Assembly: GCA_019057795.1 (NCBI GenBank)
Contig: JAHLWS010000065.1
Coordinates: 1-64,000 of the forward strand
Length of the DNA stretch: 64,000 nt
Reading direction: 5' to 3'
DNA from: Promethearchaeota archaeon
GTDB taxonomy: Archaea > Asgardarchaeota > Lokiarchaeia > Sigyniarchaeales > SOKP01
Below the pieces are notes generated by a model, which ran no database searches, was not told where the DNA came from, and saw nothing but the letters and a program-made list of their open reading frames with translations. Below are positions 29,688 to 40,063 of this stretch, piece after piece (the stretch's first letter is position 1; each line of letters starts with the position of its first letter). Made by a program: the position numbers and the translations under genes.

Positions 29688-31697
29688 TTATTGAGAGAGA
29701 AATTTTTTAATATGATCAGAATTATTTTCCACATTTGTTAAGTTCTCGCATTTCCAGGTAGGATCTTGGAGTAATTCTGTACTAGAGCCGCCAATTTTTT
29801 CTAAAAGGCCAACAAATGCTCCAAAAACTAAAGCTAATCGATATTCAAAAGCAGAAATTTTTCCCCCTCCAATTCCAAAAAGTTTAATTTTACTAGAAGT
29901 AAGTTCGTTTAATACAATATCCGTCCAATAGTGGAGTGCCTCTAAAAAACTAAAATCATTCCCATCAGTCTGATGTATTTTTAAATACCTTTCATCAACC
30001 TTAACATCTCCGGGAAAATTTTTAGGAATGTAGCCAACAGTTTTAATTGAATTCGGATACGCCTTCTGGATATCACCTACAAGGTCACAGACACCAGCAA
30101 CTGTGCTTCCAGAGATAATTGTTCCTTCAAAAGATTTTAATGCTTCTAATAAATTTCTTTGTAAATCTTGCCCGAGTTCTTCCTTACTTAGTTTCGTACT
30201 TCCTGTAATAATGACAAGTGGTATGCTCAAACCACCCTCCTTTACGTCATACTCTTTTTTCAATCGATTTATTGCATCTTTATCCTTGAATCGAATAGCT
30301 AAACCAAGTATTAGTAAATGTCTTACTAATTTAATTCCTTGTAACTTATCATCTACAATGCTAAGACTATCCAGATCATTTAAATGAGAAGAGATCATCC
30401 ATCCTGCTGTACTAAACCTTATCCCCAATAAATAATTATGTAAACTTTCATTTATCTCTTTAGAAAATAATTTAAACAGCCCATTATTGAAATATGCCCA
30501 AGGCATGTTAATTCCAACTGAAATTTGCTCTTCACTCATTTTAATTATGTTTTTTATAGCTGGTAATGAATAATCAAGGATATCGATATTTTTATTAAGA
30601 GTAATATTAGTAATAAAGTAATTAACACCAGTATAGGTATCATCAGGATTAACATTATAAGATTGGTTATAACAGTCAAGCGACCTTTTAAGATTTAGTT
30701 TCTTCCATGAACCGCCTAAGCATGTTAAAGCATCGGTATCTTCAGGATCCAATTTAATTGCTTCTTCTAAATATTTTTGTCCTTGTTGATATTCAGTGCC
30801 ATTAGGATTATTAGCATAATATTTGTATAAAGCAAGACCAAGTTCTCTTAATGCTGAAGAATTATTGGAATTGACAAAATCAGTTAGTAGTTTTATATTA
30901 AGATCCCATTTTTCTACAGCTCTTGCTAGTTTTACAATTCTTAATATTAAATTAAGTTCTTTTGATTTATCAGGGGCAGTATCATATACCAATTCCAAAC
31001 TATTAATTTTATTGTTTATTTCTTGAGCAGTCATATATGCTCCATAATTCGCCTCATATATGCTCAAAAATTCTAAGCTATTCTTAAATTCATAGTCAGC
31101 ATCTTCAAGAATTGCCGCAATTCGATAGAATTGCCGCTTAATTTTATCTGGAATTTTAATACTTGGTTTATATAAATTATCATGTTGAATAACACTCCAA
31201 CAATGTTGAAGAAGAGTTCTTATTTGAAGTTCCGCTTTAAGTTGATAAATCTCATCAGGAACATCAAGATCTTGTAGATATATGGAATCTGGAATTAATT
31301 GTACAATATAATGATGAGATAAATATCCAAATTGATCCTCATCTAAAGTATCGAGTTTGTCCTCGCTATCTTCCCATTGTATTTTGAAATTCTCTTCTAT
31401 TATTTGGCAACATTTCTTTACATCATCTAGAGTTGGTAAAATAATACGTCCACCGCACAGATCGGTTAAATCTTCAACAGGATTTGGTCCATACTTCTCT
31501 GCTTTCCCAGGGCGTTGTATTTTTTCTGCATAACTCGTTACCGCTTTAGCACGTGTTTGAACTATGCTTTCAGGAGAAATATTTTTCGCAATTTTTTTAA
31601 GAATCAATTCAAGTATTTCTGCATATTTAACAAAATCTTTACGACATTCTTTGTAATTATTAATTTCTCTTATAAGCTCATCTCGATCTTTTTTCAT
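29688..31697 (-). CDS. RelA/SpoT synthetase domain + TPR + SLOG-like domain protein
   Basis: RAKAVTSYAEK, DLCGGR, GYLSHH, ELQIRTLLQHCW; central TPRs; C-terminal VIITGS...IISGSTVAGV...VGYIP...GIGGGKISAFEYRLA...IGG. Confidence 0.85.
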   Translation of the reverse strand: MKKDRDELIREINNYKECRKDFVKYAEILELILKKIAKNISPESIVQTRAKAVTSYAEKIQRPGKAEKYGPNPVEDLTDLCGGRIILPTLDDVKKCCQIIEENFKIQWEDSEDKLDTLDEDQFGYLSHHYIVQLIPDSIYLQDLDVPDEIYQLKAELQIRTLLQHCWSVIQHDNLYKPSIKIPDKIKRQFYRIAAILEDADYEFKNSLEFLSIYEANYGAYMTAQEINNKINSLELVYDTAPDKSKELNLILRIVKLARAVEKWDLNIKLLTDFVNSNNSSALRELGLALYKYYANNPNGTEYQQGQKYLEEAIKLDPEDTDALTCLGGSWKKLNLKRSLDCYNQSYNVNPDDTYTGVNYFITNITLNKNIDILDYSLPAIKNIIKMSEEQISVGINMPWAYFNNGLFKLFSKEINESLHNYLLGIRFSTAGWMISSHLNDLDSLSIVDDKLQGIKLVRHLLILGLAIRFKDKDAINRLKKEYDVKEGGLSIPLVIITGSTKLSKEELGQDLQRNLLEALKSFEGTIISGSTVAGVCDLVGDIQKAYPNSIKTVGYIPKNFPGDVKVDERYLKIHQTDGNDFSFLEALHYWTDIVLNELTSSKIKLFGIGGGKISAFEYRLALVFGAFVGLLEKIGGSSTELLQDPTWKCENLTNVENNSDHIKKFLSQ

Positions 31698-31746: not shown

Positions 31747-34272
31747 TTACACTTTATCATGTTCATAAAGAGTTGGTAATATTACTTCTCGTAATTTAGG
31801 GTAAAAATCGGAATCAGACATGAGATATTTCTTCATAGATTGAATATCAGCAATATCAAACTCTAATTCACTGGGTAATTCAGTCTCCTTCAGATAAACA
31901 CCAAAAAATCTCTTCTGTCTTTTCGAAGCGAAGCTAATTTCCTTCATTACATAATCTGAATCGAGTATATGCGGTGTAATAAATAGTAAAAAAGCTTTAC
32001 ATCGCTCTAAATTTTCCACGATTGATCTTTTCCAATTCTCGCTAATAGGAATTCCTTCATCATACCAAATATGTATACCCTTTTTATTAAGATAGTCTAT
32101 TATTGGATATACTTGGAGTTTGTCTGTGTGAGAATAACTAACAAAAACAAATGGCTCATCTCCTTCATATGCTTCAAATGGCATTTGAAATTTCTGTGGA
32201 TCGGAAAGAAAGCTCTCAACTATCAGGTTTTCAAGAGAAGGATGCTTATTTATTTCTATAACCTCATTTACATTTACAACATTTTTCAGGGTCTCCATAA
32301 GACTAGAATCCTTTTTTAAATTCTCACAAAAATGATCTAATTTCTGCTTAGCACTATATGAATGACCTTGGAACATATAATAGATGCAAATATTTTCTAT
32401 TGCTGATATAAGGATTGTGTATTGACCAAATTTCACACGATCAAAAGATTCGGAAAAAATTTGATCGCAAAATGCATTACAAGAAGAAAGAAACTCACCG
32501 AAGTGGGACTCGTCGATAGTCATATCTGCTGTAAATGGACTGGATAATAAAACATCTCCCTCTTTTGTCATTATAGCAAATAATATAGGCTGTTCTGCAT
32601 CTAACTTCGGAGGTTTTACTACACGTTTTCTGAGCATTTGTCCCATTTGATCGTTTAAACGAGCTAATTCTATACGCTCCTCTAAAGGCGCTTTTGAATC
32701 TCTTAAGTGCTCCCATAAGTTTAGTTGATTAAGCAATTGATCGTGTTCACTTGATATCCTCATAGCTAAACGAGTAAGACCATATTTTTCAGCTATTTCT
32801 TGAGCTTTAGCCAATAATCTTCGGGCTTCTTCTAGATTCAATGAGATTAATGCTAATTTAGCTTGTAGAAGATAAGTTTCCCCCAAAATCCAAAATGAAT
32901 GTGATTTATCGGATAAATTTAATAGTTGGGTAATAAAAGGCTTGATCTCTTCTAAAATTTCTACTTCATTAGTCATTTGTAATTCAGCGAGGAGCAATTC
33001 ACATAAGTTAAGTAATGTTTTTAGTAAAATACCAATTTGTAAATCCTTTTCTTCAAGAATTTGCCTTAATAATTCTTCAGCTTTTACCCGATTGCGGGCT
33101 CGAGGACTGGTTTTCAATAGCAAAGCCTTATCAAAAAGATACACTAAATTAATAAATTTGTCTTTTAATTGACTGTTCAATTGCTCCAAATCACGAAGAG
33201 AATTCCGTGCTCGTTCAAGATCGCCCATATCAATTAATATCTGAATTAAAATGTTAAGGTTAAGAGCTAGTTCTCTTAAAACTCCTAACTCACGGCTTAA
33301 TCCCATAGATTGTTCTATACGCTCTAAAGCACGATCCAATTCTCCTTTCATTCGATAACTTTCAGATAAATTGTTAAAAACATAAATCATTAAGTATTTA
33401 TAGTTAAGTTCATTGTAAATTATCAAGCTTTGCTCAAAAAGCATAATACTACGATCCAATTCACCTCTCATTGCATAACTATCTCCCAAATCGCTAAGAA
33501 CCCTTGCTATCATAAATTTATTGTTAAGTTCATTGTAAATTATCAAGCTTTGCTCAAAAAGCATAATACTACGATCCAATTCACCTTTAACCAGATGTAC
33601 CCCTGCCATATAGTAAAGACAATATCCAATAACATTTTTATTACCACTTTCCTCGGCAAGAGCCAAGCCTTGCTTCAAGTATTTTAAAGCACGGTCAAAA
33701 TCACCTTTTAGATACGTAAATACATGGGCAATTCCTACAAGGGAACGCGCAATTTCTTTTTTAGCACTAAGTTCTTCTCGCAATGATATACTGAGCTCAA
33801 ACTGTTTTACTGCATGATCAGCCTCACTTTTTTGTTCGTAAGCCCATCCTTTCAGAAAAGCTATATACGCCTCTCTTTGCTTGTACTCTGCGGGTAATTC
33901 TAGTGTTAAAGTTTTTAGCAGTTCTTCTCCCTGCTTAATGATATCGTGAGCTTTATCCGTTGGACCTTGACCCATACGTAATAGAGCTAAAGCCATTATT
34001 AGTAAGATATCAACTGATAGAAGGTTATTTCCTAATCCTAAACTCTCTTTATATGTTTGTTCGGCAAGTTTTACACTATCTTCATATAAACCTCGCTCAC
34101 ATAAGAGCTCACATTTGAGGAAATAACATAAAACTATATCGTGAAGAGTGTGTCCTCCTTTTTCCTCAAAGCTCTTTATTAATTGCTCTGCTTCATCAAG
34201 CTTATATTCATCAATGAGTTGTTTTGCTCGAATTAATTCCTTAGGTTCTAAATAAGTCATATGTTTTTCCAT
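31747..34272 (-). CDS. TPR-repeat + longin-like + TIR domain protein (paralog 1)
   Basis: 40-aa TPR repeats; FAIMTKEGDVLLS domain; TIR motifs VFVSYSHTD, IWYDEGI, SDYVMKEI. Confidence 0.85.
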   Translation of the reverse strand: MEKHMTYLEPKELIRAKQLIDEYKLDEAEQLIKSFEEKGGHTLHDIVLCYFLKCELLCERGLYEDSVKLAEQTYKESLGLGNNLLSVDILLIMALALLRMGQGPTDKAHDIIKQGEELLKTLTLELPAEYKQREAYIAFLKGWAYEQKSEADHAVKQFELSISLREELSAKKEIARSLVGIAHVFTYLKGDFDRALKYLKQGLALAEESGNKNVIGYCLYYMAGVHLVKGELDRSIMLFEQSLIIYNELNNKFMIARVLSDLGDSYAMRGELDRSIMLFEQSLIIYNELNYKYLMIYVFNNLSESYRMKGELDRALERIEQSMGLSRELGVLRELALNLNILIQILIDMGDLERARNSLRDLEQLNSQLKDKFINLVYLFDKALLLKTSPRARNRVKAEELLRQILEEKDLQIGILLKTLLNLCELLLAELQMTNEVEILEEIKPFITQLLNLSDKSHSFWILGETYLLQAKLALISLNLEEARRLLAKAQEIAEKYGLTRLAMRISSEHDQLLNQLNLWEHLRDSKAPLEERIELARLNDQMGQMLRKRVVKPPKLDAEQPILFAIMTKEGDVLLSSPFTADMTIDESHFGEFLSSCNAFCDQIFSESFDRVKFGQYTILISAIENICIYYMFQGHSYSAKQKLDHFCENLKKDSSLMETLKNVVNVNEVIEINKHPSLENLIVESFLSDPQKFQMPFEAYEGDEPFVFVSYSHTDKLQVYPIIDYLNKKGIHIWYDEGIPISENWKRSIVENLERCKAFLLFITPHILDSDYVMKEISFASKRQKRFFGVYLKETELPSELEFDIADIQSMKKYLMSDSDFYPKLREVILPTLYEHDKV
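33403..33586. repeat. Two identical 64-bp units with a 120-bp period (33403-33466, 33523-33586)
   Basis: Both encode GELDRSIMLFEQSLIIYNELN in adjacent TPRs. Confidence 0.9.
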
Positions 34273-34308: not shown

Positions 34309-34325
34309 AAATACAATTAATATAT
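34309..34325 (-). promoter_or_regulatory. 17-bp upstream element shared by both TIR genes (second copy at 36889-36905)
   Basis: aaatacaattaatatat lies about 40-50 bp upstream of each start. Confidence 0.55.
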
Positions 34326-34475: not shown

Positions 34476-36839
34476 TCATCCATGAAGCACAGGAAACAGT
34501 GTATTTCTTAACTTATCATAAAATTCGGTTTCTGGCATGAGGTATTTTTTCATTGCTTGAATTTCATCCATATCAAACATTAGCTCATGAGGTAATTCTG
34601 TTTCTTTCAAATAAATCGTGAAAAATGGCTTATGCATTTTCATTGCATAATTAATTTCTTTCCTCACATATTCTGAATCTATTATATGAGGGGTTACAAA
34701 CACCAAAAAAGCATTACACTTATCTAAGTTTTCTACTATGGATTTCTTCCAATTCTCGCTAATAGGAATCCCTTCATCATACCAGATATTTAATCCAATT
34801 TTATTAAGATAATCTATAATAGGATAGACTTGGAGTTTGTCTGTATGAGAGTAGCTAGCAAAAACAAATGCCTCATCTCCTTCATATGCTTTAAATGGCA
34901 TTTGAAATTTGTGTGGATCAGATAGAAAACTCTCAACAATTAATTCCTCAAGAGAAGGATGTTCATTTATTGATATAATCTTATTCTCGTTAACAATATT
35001 TCCCAGAAATTTCATTAAAGTGGGATCTTTTTTAATTGCATCACAGAAATGGGTTAATTTCTGCTGAGCACTATATGAATGTCCTTGGAACATATAATAG
35101 ATGCAAATATGTTCTATTGCTGATATAAGGATTGTGTATTGACCAAATTTCACACGATCAAACGATTCTGAAAAAATTTGATCACAAAAAGTCATACAAG
35201 AGGTTAAAAACTCACCGAAGTGGGTCTCATCAATAGTCATATCCGCAGTAAAGGGGCAGGATAACACCATCTCACCCTCTTTTGTCATTATAGCAAATAA
35301 TATAGGCTGTTCTGCTTCCAATTTTGGATATTCCATCACACGTTTCTTGGTCATGTGTTTTATTTGATTAGCCAAACGAGCTAATTCTATACGTTCTCCC
35401 ATAGGGGCATTTGATTCTCTTAATCCCTCCCACACACTCAATTCATTTAATAATTTATCATGTTCTTCTGAAATACTCATAGCTAACCTATTAAGACCAA
35501 ATTTTTCAGCAATTTGCTGTCCTTTAGCCAATAATCGTCTAGCTTCTTCCAGGTTAGATGATATTAAAACCATTTTTGCTTGTAATAGATACGCTTCGGC
35601 TTGAAGCGAGTATGAATGTGTTTTTTCGGCAATATTTAATAGTCGACCAATATAATCTTTTATTTCATCCACGATTTCCATATCGTTGGTATTACGTAAA
35701 TCTACTAAGAGTATGTCACAAAGATTAATTATAGCAATTTTTTGCCCAGCATCCTCTTCAATTACCTCTTTTAATAATTTTTGAGCCTTAGCTAAATTGC
35801 TAATTCGCGGTTTAGTTTTCAACAATAAAGCTTTGCTTACACGATATAGTCTATTAACCCCTTTATTTTGTGTTTGATCGGAAATTTCTTTTATCTGTTG
35901 TAAGTATTCCTCTGCTTGGTTAATCTCATTTTTACTTATAGTTATTCGTAATAATGTGTACATAAATGAAGCGAGAAAAGGAATATTATGACCGACTTGC
36001 CTATACAATGTCAAACCCCGTTCACTAAATATTAAAGCTTGATCAAAATCACCTTGGCTATAATAAATATTGCCAATGCAGTCTAAAAAATATGCGATAT
36101 TTATTTTACCGCTATTAAGTTTCTCAGCAAGCGCTAAACCTCGTTTATAGTAGATGAGGGCATGATCCAATTCACCTCTTTGATTATAAAAAAATCCCAT
36201 ATGATAGAAAAGCCATGTAAGAAACGCATTAAAACCTTTTTCTTCAAGTGCAAGAGCTTTATCATAGTATTTCAGAGCTTGTTCCCAATCACCTTGAGAT
36301 AAGTAATTTAACCCAATATATTGATAAAATCGTGCAATTTCATGCTTATTACCTAGTTTTTTTTGCAGTGCTAATCCATATTTAAGATATTTTAAACTAA
36401 GCTCTAAATCCCTTTCAAGATAATTATCCACATTAATATAACCTTTTATAAGAGCAATAGCAGATTCTATCCTGTTGTGTTCAATTGTCGTTTCTAGAGT
36501 AATAGTTTTAAAAAATTTTTCACATTTCATAATCACCTCAAGACTCTCGTTATATCTCTCAAGATACATAAAAGCCTCAGCCATTTCAATGGATACATCA
36601 ATTGATTGGATAGGAGTTCCTAATTTTTCAGCGTCTTTATAAGTTTTTTTGGCAAGTTTGAGAGCATCTTCATGGAACCCTAGCTTGTTTAGGAGAGTAC
36701 ACTTAATGATATTGTTGGAAAGTTGATCTTGAGATGTAATACCTTCATTTTTCTCTATTTCTTTGATTATCTTAAAGGCTTCAATAAATTTACCTTCTTC
36801 CTTAAGATGTTTTGCTTGAAGCAATTCTTCAGGATCCAA
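34476..36839 (-). CDS. TPR-repeat + longin-like + TIR domain protein (paralog 2)
   Basis: TPRs; FAIMTKEGEMVLS; TIR motifs VFASYSHTD, IWYDEGI, SEYVRKEI. Confidence 0.85.
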   Translation of the reverse strand: MDPEELLQAKHLKEEGKFIEAFKIIKEIEKNEGITSQDQLSNNIIKCTLLNKLGFHEDALKLAKKTYKDAEKLGTPIQSIDVSIEMAEAFMYLERYNESLEVIMKCEKFFKTITLETTIEHNRIESAIALIKGYINVDNYLERDLELSLKYLKYGLALQKKLGNKHEIARFYQYIGLNYLSQGDWEQALKYYDKALALEEKGFNAFLTWLFYHMGFFYNQRGELDHALIYYKRGLALAEKLNSGKINIAYFLDCIGNIYYSQGDFDQALIFSERGLTLYRQVGHNIPFLASFMYTLLRITISKNEINQAEEYLQQIKEISDQTQNKGVNRLYRVSKALLLKTKPRISNLAKAQKLLKEVIEEDAGQKIAIINLCDILLVDLRNTNDMEIVDEIKDYIGRLLNIAEKTHSYSLQAEAYLLQAKMVLISSNLEEARRLLAKGQQIAEKFGLNRLAMSISEEHDKLLNELSVWEGLRESNAPMGERIELARLANQIKHMTKKRVMEYPKLEAEQPILFAIMTKEGEMVLSCPFTADMTIDETHFGEFLTSCMTFCDQIFSESFDRVKFGQYTILISAIEHICIYYMFQGHSYSAQQKLTHFCDAIKKDPTLMKFLGNIVNENKIISINEHPSLEELIVESFLSDPHKFQMPFKAYEGDEAFVFASYSHTDKLQVYPIIDYLNKIGLNIWYDEGIPISENWKKSIVENLDKCNAFLVFVTPHIIDSEYVRKEINYAMKMHKPFFTIYLKETELPHELMFDMDEIQAMKKYLMPETEFYDKLRNTLFPVLHG

Positions 36840-37100
36840 CTAAGACCTCTCTATATAAAGATTTGATTTGTTTAGATTATAAATTTTTAAATACAATTAA
36901 TATATAAGGGTAATTACTATTTTAAATGTAATTAAGGTTAATGAGTTGTTGGTGAAATAGAAAAAAAGAATTAAAAAAATTATAGTCCCAGAAAATAATG
37001 AAGAATTAGATGATGATCATTTTTAAAATTTTGAGAAACAATAAAATAAGACTTATCAATTCTATAAAAATAAAAATACAACAGGACTTCATTAGTGGGG

Positions 37101-38570: not shown

Positions 38571-39308
38571 TTAAGGCATTGTTATAATGTTAGTATCTTC
38601 GTCAAGATTTATTATACCCTTTACTGCAAGCTGTTTAATAGTTCTAACAGCCATAATTGGAGGAACATCAAGCAGTTTTTTCAAGTCATTAAGATTACAG
38701 CTACCTTGAGCCATAATAGTGGCTATTATATCAACCTCAGGAAAATCTTCTTTAGAATTTTCTATTAAAAACGATGTAAAGTAGCTATCCCTTTTTAAAT
38801 AAGTTAGTTTTTTATTTAAATCTTCCATCTTTTGCCCTGTATATGTTGTTTTTAGTTGATTTTCCTTGTTTTCGTTATCGATCTTTTTCTGGTCTAACTG
38901 TGACTTTTCTAACTCTTTTGAAGCGATTTTTTCGTTTATGGTATTTAACTTCGATAAATTGTTTTCAAGCTCAACTTTAGGTGTCTTGAGATCGTCATTT
39001 ATACTCTCTAAAGTGCCTTTTAATTCCGAAACTTTTGATAAGGATTCGTCCTTTGTAGATTTTAAGCTTTCAAGTTTTTTATTTAAATCATCTGCTTTAA
39101 TTTTTAATCCAGTTAATTCATTCTTTTGAATTTCAATATTTCTTTCTATTTTTTGGAGATCATCATGCTCTAATTTCATCAATTTCCATGTTGAGCTTAA
39201 ATTTTGAATAATATTTTCGCAATTTTTTTGAAAGGCTTGCTGATATTCGTCAAAATATTTTTCAAGTTGTTCAATTGATCCTAAAATATCTTTTAAACTT
39301 GAACTCAT
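38571..39308 (-). CDS. Coiled-coil protein with C-terminal winged helix
   Basis: Long E/K/L heptads, then DIIATIMAQGSCNLNDLKKLL...IKQLAVKGIINLD. Confidence 0.75.
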   Translation of the reverse strand: MSSSLKDILGSIEQLEKYFDEYQQAFQKNCENIIQNLSSTWKLMKLEHDDLQKIERNIEIQKNELTGLKIKADDLNKKLESLKSTKDESLSKVSELKGTLESINDDLKTPKVELENNLSKLNTINEKIASKELEKSQLDQKKIDNENKENQLKTTYTGQKMEDLNKKLTYLKRDSYFTSFLIENSKEDFPEVDIIATIMAQGSCNLNDLKKLLDVPPIMAVRTIKQLAVKGIINLDEDTNIITMP

Positions 39309-40063
39309 TAGAAATCAACCTCCTCTTTTAGGGTTATCGTTCCATCCGTTGGATTATATTCGATTGGTCCGTTATCTTCAAGCATTTTTACTATAATTTT
39401 TTTGGCTTGGTCTTCTCTCATATCAATTGCAACTAATATATTTTTTAAATCTAAAGCACTTCCTAATTGTAAGGCTTTGATAAACTGAAATAATGAAGAG
39501 TTTATGTATTTCTTATTAATTAAAATTTTCATGGCAGCTACTCTATTTTCGTACGATTGAACGAATTTTTCCTTCTTTATAAAAGTATTTTCAAGCTCAG
39601 CTTCTAATGCGTTTAATTCTACTTCAAATTTTTCAATTTCTTTATATAAAGTAAACAATCTATCCTCAAGTTCTCTTAGACGCTGATCCCGACTTATTAA
39701 TTCTTCTTGTTTCAATTTAATGATCTGTTGTGTCTCATTCAACTCATTTTGTTTTTCCTGAATTTTTTGTAATAATTCTTGGCGCTTTTTCGTTAATTCA
39801 GCATTATCTTCTTCAAACTTTACGATATCTCGTTGATTTTGAGAAATCTCATTCTTGAAAGAATTAATTTCTTCATTGTTAGATTCTATAGTTTTCATTA
39901 GGTTGTTTTTTTCATCTTCGTATTTTTCTAACCCTTCAAGAATGCTTTCGGGTTGCATTCTTAATTTCGGTATATAATCGCTATTTAATCCGCTAATATC
40001 TACAATTATCGAAGTCATTTTCTTTAAAGATGTTTTAGCATCTAATATTGGTACCTCACTCAT
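39308..40063 (-). CDS. Coiled-coil protein with C-terminal winged-helix-like domain
   Basis: Long heptads, then LDLKNILVAIDMREDQAKKIIVKML...IEYNPTDGTITL; 1-nt overlap with the next gene. Confidence 0.72.
   Translation of the reverse strand: MSEVPILDAKTSLKKMTSIIVDISGLNSDYIPKLRMQPESILEGLEKYEDEKNNLMKTIESNNEEINSFKNEISQNQRDIVKFEEDNAELTKKRQELLQKIQEKQNELNETQQIIKLKQEELISRDQRLRELEDRLFTLYKEIEKFEVELNALEAELENTFIKKEKFVQSYENRVAAMKILINKKYINSSLFQFIKALQLGSALDLKNILVAIDMREDQAKKIIVKMLEDNGPIEYNPTDGTITLKEEVDF

Follow-up and report, generated by a model that had tools for sequence, protein, structure and literature searches.

A single reverse-strand gene, P0001, and the two paralogous genes that precede it on that strand make up the locus described here, which lies within a window of 64,000 nucleotides (the whole stretch of DNA that was analysed). 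P0001 encodes a three-domain RelA/SpoT-type protein and its upstream neighbours, P0002 and P0003, encode large TPR-X-TIR proteins. The features are as follows:

29688..31697 (-): whole gene P0001, RelA/SpoT(SAS)-TPR-S-SLOG protein (ORF and translation, full-length homologues, AF2)
31053..31697 (-): SAS-type pyrophosphokinase (synthetase) domain, aa 1-215 (PF04607, PDB profile match, Foldseek, invariant catalytic residues)
30246..31052 (-): all-helical TPR array of the TPR-S (sensor) type, aa 216-484 (PF20308, AF2 helical repeats)
29691..30245 (-): SLOG domain of the TRPM/LSDAT type, predicted nucleotide-ligand sensor, aa 485-669 (separate AF2 model, Foldseek, VIA)
31747..34272 (-): P0002, 841 aa, TPR(MalT-like)-middle domain-TIR protein, proposed to act as sensor and to generate the signal (TPR_12, TPR_MalT, TIR_2)
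34309..34325 (-): 17-nt AT-rich, promoter-like element ATATATTAATTGTATTT, 37 nt upstream of the P0002 start
34476..36839 (-): P0003, paralogous TPR-X-TIR protein, 787 aa (TIR_2, homology to P0002)
36889..36905 (-): identical second copy of the 17-nt element ATATATTAATTGTATTT, 50 nt upstream of the P0003 start

The P0001 open reading frame starts with ATG and encodes 669 aa, its coordinates matching the ORF list and translation exactly, and homologues that span its full length were found at 26-97% identity. In the AF2 model (pLDDT 90.6, pTM 0.79) the domains account for the entire chain and no globular part is left over. A preliminary description of this DNA had read P0001 as an archaeal RelA/SpoT-TPR-SLOG fusion devoid of HD, TGS and ACT domains, and we could confirm each element of that reading: the fusion is supported by domain matches and by the AF2 fold across all 669 aa, and HD, TGS and ACT gave zero Pfam or NCBIfam matches in a chain that the AF2 domains cover. 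As for the archaeal host, the SSU scored 1458 bits on the archaeal model versus 1118 on the bacterial one, and the nearest homologues (73-97% identity) as well as the syntenic contigs belong to Promethearchaeota MAGs. The architecture itself turned out not to be an archaeal peculiarity, as most family members are bacterial. At 669 aa and with TPR-S and SLOG modules, compared to ~200-250 aa for the classical single-domain SAS, P0001 is a SAS-type catalytic domain within a multidomain protein and not a classical SAS.

P0002 lies directly upstream of P0001 on the same strand, separated from it by 49 bp, and P0003 precedes P0002 with a spacer of 203 bp. Their TIR domains were recognised by TIR_2 (P0002: aa 709-811, E about 1e-17 to 6.7e-17; P0003: E about 1e-15 to 3.2e-15) and by ThsB-like PADLOC models. 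E778 of P0002 aligns with the catalytic-site WxxxE glutamate of SARM1/tir-1, AbTIR and Cat1, and P0003 retains this residue as E728. The two proteins are 50% identical overall, their C-terminal ~400 aa being ~80% identical and their TPR halves having diverged, and they combine a variable TPR end with a conserved signalling end; their middle domain had zero Pfam matches even at E<=10. The 17-nt element seems to have been duplicated along with the TIR gene, and we infer for it a promoter-like function. A VapBC-like pair is located immediately downstream of P0001.

A profile search of the 4.95 Mb genome returned a single RelA_SpoT gene; of its three TIR_2 matches, two (P0002 and P0003) lie within 5.2 kb upstream of P0001 on its own strand; further copies of the P0001 family were searched for in the genome as well, yielding generic TPR matches only. 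The genome search for a small alarmone hydrolase that the preliminary description had advised gave no HD_4/SAH match in this genome, whose marker-based completeness is 100%. DUF4062 was likewise absent from the genome, no partner-type NUDIX gene was found near P0001 (the genome's NUDIX genes being located elsewhere), and the search for an antitoxin gave neither an HD_4/SAH gene in the genome nor a conserved small neighbour across the Asgard loci.

Synthetase and sensor domains of P0001

Pfam RelA_SpoT (PF04607) matched P0001 at aa 48-178 (E 3.6e-15, 56.6 bits, cut-off 27) and was matched in 48/48 family members. All four synthetase motifs named in the preliminary description are present and conserved: R49-x-K51-xxx-S55-xxx-K59; D79-xx-G82-x-R84, with D79 as the Mg aspartate; G124-Y125-x-S127-x-H129, with Y125 as the acceptor-stacking tyrosine; and E156-x-Q158-x-R160-T161-xxx-H165-x-W167, with E156 and Q158 as the catalytic Glu/Gln. 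Across 48 homologues, down to 29% identity, R49, K51, K59, D79, R84, G124, Y125, E156, Q158 and H165 are invariant, and S55, G82, S127, H129, R160, T161 and W167 are conserved in at least 90%. Judging from these residues, the active site is intact and the enzyme is apparently active.

Searched against the PDB, the family profile scored 91 bits on RelQ, 79/66 on RelP, 44.5 on CapRel and at most 21 on long RSH enzymes, a ranking that serves as a proxy for placement in the named RSH/toxSAS tree. Foldseek, run with the synthetase domain, gave TM 0.75-0.83 to 2be3/5dec/6fgk and listed CapRel at rank 43. The sole PADLOC match of P0001, to the candidate-defence model PDC-S33, also falls on this domain. 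The domain has a pI of 5.1 and a net charge of -9, and the family's synthetase domains have a median pI of 6.4 and charges ranging up to +12, values that are a crude proxy for surface charge. According to Kurata et al., toxSAS that target tRNA carry a basic patch and the surface of RelP/RelQ is negative, and tRNA-using toxSAS have no clear sequence signature; as the P0001 domain is acidic, a tRNA 3'-CCA target is less likely for it. The view of P0001 as a synthetase-only RSH with regulatory modules holds on domain content and on the absence of HD, TGS and ACT. P0001 does not belong to the canonical stringent response, being the sole RelA_SpoT gene of its genome and patchy in the phylum. Conditional activation would be the natural reading of such a layout.

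The TPR-S family (PF20308) matched P0001 at aa 264-361 with 25.4 bits, slightly below its 27.6 cut-off; it matched 19/48 family members (best 3.4e-9), and a match is on record for most Loki orthologues of P0001. Within this region G287 and P399 are invariant in the 48-homologue alignment and G306 nearly so. The preliminary description had taken the TPR array for a protein-binding module, which is probably wrong: in the Thoeris preprint (bioRxiv 10.64898/2025.12.03.692087) the TPR-S type, there credited to Aravind and colleagues, is the part of the type VIII effector ThsI that presumably senses cADPR.

The SLOG domain gave a weak LSDAT_prok (PF18171) match at aa 494-559, with 14.3 bits versus a cut-off of 25.4, and 22/48 family members matched at E<=0.001 (best 1e-10). 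Modelled separately by AF2 (pLDDT 94), it had the N-terminal domain of TRPM8/2/4 and the MoCo carrier protein as its best Foldseek matches, and VIA aligned it to MHR1/2 of TRPM2/3/4 with Z 16-17 and an rmsd of 2.4-2.7 A over 181-183 of its 185 residues, and to the LOG-like 1rcu with Z 17.8 over 158 residues. It also carries the conserved SLOG motifs GGT-x-x-GV and GG-x5-E (G530, T532, G535, G611, G612, E618). The assignment is thus weak by sequence but, going by the modelled fold, firm. In TRPM2, the MHR1/2 domain binds ADP-ribose. The two-input enzyme suggested by the preliminary description is one possibility, but TPR-S and SLOG of P0001 may also both read a single signal, or either of them may serve solely for autoinhibition or oligomerisation. 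Two Aravind-lab papers (NAR 2015; J Bacteriol 2020) are said to be the most likely first description of the RelA/SpoT-TPR-S-SLOG architecture, and a prior computational description is implied by the very existence of the Pfam names TPR-S and LSDAT_prok. Our literature search found no experimental work on the family.

Distribution and gene neighbourhoods of the family

The RelA/SpoT-TPR-S-SLOG family was found in 536 of 185,579 species genomes, both bacterial and archaeal. Of 201 genomes sampled across the phylum, 10 contain RelA_SpoT, and within the genus it was seen in 1 of 16 further genomes; the distribution of the family is patchy and accessory, even within the genus. The Asgard copies form a single well-supported clade without NUDIX and without RyR, and bacterial members mostly come with MutT-like NUDIX and RyR modules. 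All seven Loki/Hod-type loci with readable flanks have one to three TPR-X-TIR genes followed by the P0001 orthologue, and in Loki/Hod-type genomes there is no evaluable TPR-X-TIR array without a P0001-type gene.

Across the family, TIR_2 was found in 23 of 81 non-redundant loci and DUF4062-NACHT-WD40/TPR in 18, one or the other of TIR_2 and DUF4062 lay within 5 kb in 38 loci spread over 16 of 21 phylum groups, and of 38 loci flanked by 4 kb or more on each side, 23 had TIR or DUF4062, 20 had NUDIX and 29 had any of these; the counts have no formal background control and are lower bounds, because the HMMs were built from those same loci. In bacteria the family is accompanied by RyR-domain proteins (TrkA_N-RyR, small RyR), in 25/81 loci. 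SLATT genes occur at some bacterial loci, and a SLATT_4-like gene lies 3' of the orthologue in the related locus L004. With a score of 29 bits, where genuine partners have a median of 194, the NUDIX gene that heads the operon in L004 was rejected as a true partner; the present genome contains no homologue of it. In bacteria the partner NUDIX resembles MutT/NudI and not an ADPRase, which would suit clearance of the product better than clearance of the signal and is directly uninformative on ADPR.

Coupling to TIR genes is not universal. Four members of the Asgard clade (L009, L019, L034 and L035) are without a TIR gene in the surrounding 5 kb and ~40% of well-flanked loci overall lack an adjacent one, and so the enzyme can exist without a TIR neighbour. 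Nor is there a conserved downstream effector in the window or in the closest relatives, among which the +1 gene varies.

A proposed TIR-gated pyrophosphokinase and its alternatives

Several known systems resemble parts of this locus. RelQ/SAS1 and RelP/SAS2 (PDB 2BE3, 5DEC/5DED, 6FGK and 6EWZ) share with P0001 the catalytic fold and the donor-ATP, Mg and acceptor-stacking residues (R49, K51, K59, D79, R84, Y125, E156, Q158), lack a hydrolase domain as it does, and are its best matches by sequence and structure; they are, however, ~210-aa single-domain housekeeping enzymes of Firmicutes, whereas P0001 has 669 aa, TPR-S and SLOG modules, a patchy distribution and a link to TIR genes. The toxSAS (CapRel, FaRel2, PhRel2; FaRel/Tas1) are also synthetase-only RSH enzymes, in their case growth-arresting weapons, and in CapRel too a regulator is fused at the C-terminus. 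Yet the P0001 family is closer to RelQ/RelP than to CapRel (91 vs 44.5 bits), neither an antitoxin gene nor an SAH accompanies P0001, its domain is acidic where tRNA-binding toxSAS are basic, and its tail is made of predicted nucleotide-sensor modules where that of CapRel-type toxSAS is a pseudo-zinc-finger domain. With TRPM2 it shares the SLOG fold across the whole MHR1/2 domain (Z 16-17) and a similar GGT-x-x-GV signature, and the NUDT9-H NUDIX of TRPM2 is paralleled by the NUDIX protein paired with bacterial family members; but the SLOG domain is predicted to gate a soluble enzyme and not an ion channel, ADPR binding is putative here, and the bacterial NUDIX partner is MutT/NudI-like instead of NUDT9-like and is missing from the Asgard clade.

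The Thoeris systems come closest in layout. Type I Thoeris (ThsB TIR and ThsA SIR2-SLOG) likewise has TIR gene(s) beside an effector with a SLOG ligand sensor, type III has multiple TIR paralogues, and the type VIII effector ThsI has a TPR type that presumably senses cADPR. P0001 differs in being a RelA/SpoT pyrophosphokinase and not a SIR2, Macro-TM, caspase or other described effector, and its locus in having a TRPM/LSDAT-type SLOG, large TPR-X-TIR sensors, an Asgard host and a putative defence role. The accessible main text and four supplementary files of the 2025 Thoeris survey (bioRxiv 10.64898/2025.12.03.692087) contain no RelA_SpoT, PF04607 or LSDAT term, and P0001 lies outside the effector types (ThsA, ThsC-ThsL) described in those parts of the survey and in PADLOC; if Thoeris-like, the system would be an undescribed type.

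The preliminary description had stopped at a generic regulated enzyme, a reading that omitted the decisive context, namely the two upstream TIR genes and the family-wide TIR/DUF4062-STAND/NUDIX neighbourhood, and it is on account of this context that we put forward a specific TIR-signalling hypothesis. P0001 is probably a TIR-signal-gated pyrophosphokinase, the output enzyme of a Thoeris-like anti-virus conflict system. The paralogous P0002 and P0003 would sense the invader through their fast-diverging TPR halves, and their TIR domains, which retain the catalytic glutamate in the alignment, would, by analogy with Thoeris TIR enzymes, use NAD+ to make ADP-ribose or else an ADPR derivative in cyclic or conjugated form. 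This nucleotide would be bound by the TRPM-type SLOG domain and/or TPR-S of P0001, whose fold and family are those described above, and its binding would free the N-terminal SAS-type pyrophosphokinase with its intact active site. With ATP as the donor of pyrophosphate and a purine nucleotide as its acceptor, the enzyme would then form (p)ppGpp- or (p)ppApp-type products and/or drain the ATP of the infected cell, which would be arrested. The Asgard version is the minimal form, and since it has no RyR tail, partner NUDIX or alarmone hydrolase, the pathway probably ends with the synthetase as its effector.

We counted in favour of the Thoeris-like reading the intact active site and SAS fold, the acidic synthetase domain, the TRPM-like SLOG, the TPR-S type and the PDC-S33 match, the catalytic glutamate and variable TPR ends of the TIR proteins, together with the genome-level and two-way TIR linkage, the family-wide neighbours and the patchy distribution. 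Counted against it were the TPR-S and LSDAT_prok scores of P0001, which fall under the curated cut-offs, the loci without an adjacent TIR gene, the MutT/NudI-like character of the bacterial NUDIX, and the consideration that a shared neighbourhood does not establish a shared function. A TPR-TIR or DUF4062-STAND protein may be an NADase defence protein complete in itself, and such genes may merely cluster in defence islands.

P0001 might instead be a physiological, non-immune alarmone synthetase that senses NAD or ADP-ribose status, its SLOG or TPR-S module reading endogenous ADPR or a related metabolite under redox or NAD-turnover stress, as in TRPM2, and its alarmone retuning metabolism, with TIR genes that tune the same pool or are unrelated. 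The four Asgard-clade loci without a TIR neighbour would fit such a role, as would the housekeeping nature of RelQ/RelP, the nearest solved enzymes, whose acidic character the domain shares, and the MutT-like NUDIX partner of bacteria, which is what a make-and-break second-messenger pair would lead one to expect. We nevertheless regard it as unlikely, given how patchy the family is even inside a genus, how tightly, in Loki-type genomes, it and the diversifying multi-copy TPR-TIR sensor genes are tied to each other, and that its partners elsewhere are NLR-like DUF4062-STAND proteins; a genome without an alarmone hydrolase or partner NUDIX would also be odd for a reversible regulator.

Distinctly unlikely, in our estimate, is a CapRel-like fused toxin-sensor, in which the TPR-S/SLOG tail would autoinhibit a toxic SAS until a viral protein binds it, and the TIR proteins would be independent abortive-infection genes in a shared defence island. 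CapRel is a recognisable relative by sequence (44.5 bits) and structure (Foldseek rank 43), the single-gene defence candidate PDC-S33 matches the synthetase domain, TPR arrays frequently bind proteins, and the VapBC-like pair just downstream suits island-like surroundings. The tail modules, however, bind nucleotides elsewhere (SLOG in TRPM2 and ThsA, TPR-S presumably in ThsI), and the tail is highly conserved, with invariant Gly/Thr/Glu motifs at 29% identity, where direct viral-protein sensors usually diversify; in this locus it is the TIR proteins that diversify, in their TPR halves, and TIR/DUF4062 linkage in 16/21 phylum groups exceeds what could be expected of island co-residence. The RyR-domain proteins of 25/81 loci and the occasional SLATT genes in bacteria, along with the SLATT_4-like gene that follows the orthologue in L004, would agree with a signal converter, in which the RelA/SpoT domain would add pyrophosphate to a nucleotide, possibly to the TIR product (the adenosine 3'-OH of ADPR being free), and the resulting second messenger would act on other proteins, in bacteria those with RyR domains or SLATT pores and in Asgard further partners. 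This we hold to be highly improbable, as the window and the closest relatives lack a conserved downstream effector and the sequence gives no pointer to an ADPR acceptor.

Returning to the TIR-gated pyrophosphokinase, a more far-reaching version of it is possible but doubtful: a two-tier Asgard immune pathway resembling that of plant TNLs, in which diversifying TPR-X-TIR receptors produce a NAD-derived messenger that acts through a TRPM-type SLOG/TPR-S receptor on an alarmone-type pyrophosphokinase. The product of this enzyme would be new to archaea, whether it is (p)ppApp or (p)ppGpp or even an ADPR derivative that carries a pyrophosphate. Should this pathway be real, it would constitute a new Thoeris effector class and the first alarmone-based immune output in archaea, and the ADPR-sensing SLOG of TRPM would have relatives in prokaryotic immunity, in the lineage nearest to eukaryotes.

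If the gating of P0001 by a TIR signal is true, TIR/NAD-derived immune signalling, RelA/SpoT alarmone chemistry and a TRPM-type SLOG sensor meet in one protein, and a pyrophosphokinase would join the known enzyme classes among TIR-signalling outputs. To our knowledge archaea are not known to use (p)ppGpp, and they would gain a defined alarmone-type reaction. The Asgard clade, with TIR sensors and one effector, is the simplest version and offers a clean system for questions of ligand and product, and in a family that spans hundreds of species one biochemical finding would be enough to annotate a large number of genes.

Domain architecture and fold of the RelA-type protein

The P0001 locus is a real feature, and the RelA/SpoT-TPR-SLOG fusion proposed for P0001 in the preliminary description was borne out by its open reading frame, by Pfam and by a structure model. 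The latter, an AF2 model made from 48 homologues, was confident (pLDDT 90.6, pTM 0.79), and its regions are listed together with the Pfam matches:

29688-31697, minus strand: P0001 open reading frame, ATG start, 669 amino acids
P0001 amino acids 1-215: N-domain, α/β (AF2 model)
P0001 amino acids 48-178: RelA_SpoT (Pfam, E 3.6e-15)
P0001 amino acids 216-484: helical repeat array (AF2 model)
P0001 amino acids 264-361: TPR-S (Pfam, 25.4 bits, slightly under the cut-off)
P0001 amino acids 485-669: C-domain, Rossmann-like (AF2 model)
P0001 amino acids 494-559: LSDAT_prok SLOG (Pfam, weak match)

The N-domain resembles RelQ and RelP structures (Foldseek TM 0.75-0.83), and the family profile, compared with solved structures, ranked RelQ (91 bits) above RelP (79/66), CapRel (44.5) and long RelA/SpoT homologues (RSH; at most 21 bits). 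The catalytic domain belongs to the RSH of the small alarmone synthetase (SAS) type, though P0001 differs from a classical SAS in its size and additional modules, and it falls outside the toxic SAS (toxSAS), an antitoxin being absent. Its active site is intact: the four synthetase motifs noted earlier are indeed present and are invariant or nearly so among homologues down to 29% identity, and Pfam and NCBIfam agreed with the earlier reading that HD, TGS and ACT regions are absent.

The C-domain, which has a SLOG fold, reached a pLDDT of 94 when folded separately. Its top Foldseek matches were the N-terminal MHR1/2 regions of TRPM8, TRPM2 and TRPM4, ADPR-bound TRPM2 among them. VIA gave Z scores of 16-17 against TRPM2, TRPM3 and TRPM4, across 181-183 of its 185 residues; LOG-like and MoCo-carrier proteins scored equally high in VIA, over fewer residues. 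The family profile weakly detected the TRPM 'GGT-N-T-GV' stretch. LSDAT_prok matches were found in 22 of 48 family members and TPR-S matches in 19 of 48.

TIR genes next door and the Asgard clade

Two paralogous genes, located directly upstream of the P0001 gene and in the same orientation, encode P0002 (841 aa, 49 bp from the P0001 gene) and P0003 (787 aa). Both proteins consist of MalT-like TPRs, a middle domain of ~150 aa and a C-terminal TIR_2 domain (Pfam), a layout termed TPR-X-TIR here, and both gave ThsB-like PADLOC matches, ThsB being the TIR protein of type I Thoeris defence. The catalytic Glu is retained (E778 in P0002, E728 in P0003), as seen by alignment to the TIR domains of SARM1/tir-1, AbTIR and Cat1. 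P0002 and P0003 share ~80% identity across their C-terminal ~400 aa while their TPR halves have diverged, and an identical 17-nt AT-rich element precedes each gene. The middle domain, which matched no Pfam family even at E<=10, is strongly conserved between them:

32175-32640, minus strand: middle domain between TPR array and TIR, P0002 amino acids 545-700
34890-35355, minus strand: middle domain between TPR array and TIR, P0003 amino acids 495-650

The TPR end and middle domain of P0002 recur at 35-45% identity in ~650-aa proteins of the Asgard groups Promethearchaeum, Thor-, Hermod-, Hod- and Heimdallarchaeota (loci L099-L106, e.g. L099:8816-10774:+). Since these proteins end right behind the middle domain, without a TIR, the TIR sensors look like a common TPR-middle-domain chassis to which a TIR is joined. 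P0002 and P0003 account for two of the three TIR_2 matches of the genome; the third is a small (~134-aa) TIR ORF on another contig (C9:11804-12718), which has a further, weak TIR-like ORF next to it on the other strand.

This gene linkage is tight and recurrent. In each of the seven core Loki-type loci whose upstream flank could be read, the RelA-type gene is preceded by one to three TPR-X-TIR genes, and in a reverse search from the conserved C-terminal half of P0002 a RelA-type gene followed every TPR-X-TIR array with a readable downstream flank, the remaining arrays stopping at contig edges. A Heimdall member has a DUF4062-nSTAND-WD40 gene downstream instead, and no TIR was found near four more divergent Asgard members. 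In a maximum-likelihood tree of 77 members, drawn from the 80 best matches to P0001 and hence biased towards its relatives, a branch with 100% SH-aLRT support separated all Loki, Hod and Heimdall sequences from the remainder, and non-Asgard archaeal members were dispersed among bacteria.

Immediately downstream of the P0001 gene, 28814-29448 (minus strand) is a predicted VapBC-type toxin-antitoxin pair: a 138-aa PIN-domain gene (PF01850, E 5e-14) overlaps by 13 nt an upstream 76-aa ORF with a faintly VapB-like N-terminus. Close relatives carry at this position a SLATT_4-like gene (locus L004) or an unassigned 241-263-aa family (loci L014/L015); a homologue of the former is encoded elsewhere in the present genome, apart from the TIR and RelA-type genes (C78:198240-198878, 47% identity over 215 aa). 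Upstream of the locus, 38571-40063 (minus strand) holds two adjoining, coiled-coil-like ORFs of ~250 aa, the first with a weak MarR-type winged-helix match at its C-terminus (E 0.0015) and the second with a weak AAA_13 coiled-coil match; no link between this pair and the TIR/RelA genes was seen.

Host genome and family distribution

The window (GC ~31%) lies on a 187-kb contig of a 4.95-Mb genome in 87 contigs, whose SSU rRNA scored 1458 bits with the archaeal model and 1118 with the bacterial one. The archaeal assignment of the contig does not rest on binning alone, since the full-length proteins closest to P0001 (73-97% identical) belong to MAGs of Promethearchaeota (Loki-type Asgard), and one of these also has the flanking DUF362 gene. 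The genome holds a single RelA_SpoT gene. Of 201 genomes sampled from the phylum only 10 carry such a gene, as does just 1 of 16 further genomes from the genus, a distribution that fits an accessory and exchangeable gene and not a core regulator. The search for a small alarmone hydrolase that the preliminary description had proposed found no HD_4 match in the genome.

The RelA-TPR-S-SLOG architecture is common in both bacteria and archaea, with 602 cluster representatives (50% identity) at E<1e-30 and a P0001 relative in 536 of 185,579 species genomes. The archaeal hosts are Loki, Hod, Heimdall, Bathyarchaeia, Thermoplasmatota, Halobacteriota and methanogens; those among bacteria include Chloroflexota, Planctomycetota, Gemmatimonadota, Actinomycetota and Bacteroidota. 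Many members, mainly bacterial, carry an additional C-terminal RyR domain.

For 81 non-redundant loci, genes lying up to 5 kb from the family gene were clustered; neighbours were counted with HMMs made from the same loci, so that the counts are lower bounds. MutT/NudI-like NUDIX proteins were found in 40 loci, mostly adjacent and co-oriented, RyR-domain proteins in 25, TIR_2 proteins in 23 and DUF4062-NACHT-WD40/TPR proteins in 18, with TIR or DUF4062 in 38 (no DUF4062 was found in the present genome). Where both flanks reached at least 4 kb (38 loci), TIR or DUF4062 was present in 23 and TIR, DUF4062 or NUDIX in 29. The TIR/DUF4062 linkage was seen across 16 of 21 phylum groups. The partner NUDIX of bacterial and non-Asgard archaeal members (e.g. 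loci L008, L021 and L023) forms a MutT/NudI-like subfamily of its own, closest among solved structures to the 'MutT related protein' 3grn (130 bits). It is unlike ADP-ribose pyrophosphatases, which suggests a role in clearing the product of the synthetase and not the signal of the TIR proteins. RyR tail, RyR neighbour and partner NUDIX were found in none of 15 Asgard-clade loci. In eight loci a ClpB-like double-AAA+ ATPase (~765 aa; e.g. L060:6039-8336:-) lies within 5 kb, chiefly on the strand opposite to the family gene.

A candidate Thoeris-like circuit

The most economical reading of the locus is a Thoeris-like circuit in which P0002 and P0003 would produce an NAD-derived nucleotide as a signal, and not merely deplete NAD+; this nucleotide would bind the SLOG and/or TPR-S receptor in the tail of P0001, and binding would switch on the SAS-type pyrophosphokinase. 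The literature lends indirect support by analogy: the SLOG domain of the Thoeris effector ThsA binds 3'cADPR, and the TPR of the effector ThsI is presumed to sense cADPR, a prediction credited to Aravind and colleagues (bioRxiv 10.64898/2025.12.03.692087). P0001, as the candidate effector, is not among the described Thoeris types (bioRxiv 10.64898/2025.12.03.692087).

We consider it unlikely that P0001 is a physiological, ADPR-sensing alarmone synthetase, and slightly less likely still that it is a fused toxin-sensor of the CapRel kind whose TIR genes just happen to share its island: the nucleotide-sensor tail is conserved, the TIR sensors are diversifying, and TPR-X-TIR and RelA-type genes are linked in both directions, all of which argue against either. 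That P0001 converts a signal to feed RyR or SLATT proteins is quite improbable, as the Asgard clade lacks a conserved downstream gene.

As to the product of the enzyme, we lean towards a nucleotide acceptor, given the acidity of the catalytic domain (pI 5.1, net charge -9): according to Kurata et al., the surface of RelP/RelQ is negative, whereas tRNA-modifying toxSAS have a basic patch on theirs. Because family members pass between bacteria and archaea, their effect should not need the (p)ppGpp targets of bacteria; draining of ATP or toxicity of the (p)ppApp type would be effective in every cell. The bacterial partner NUDIX fits the removal of a nucleotide product. The Asgard clade lacks it, and no alarmone hydrolase was found in the present genome, which points to a probable terminal, abortive output in that clade.

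The Pfam names of the domain families imply a prior computational description, and our literature searches found no experimental work on the family. New here are a distinct Asgard clade, its minimal form and its obligate TPR-X-TIR arrays.
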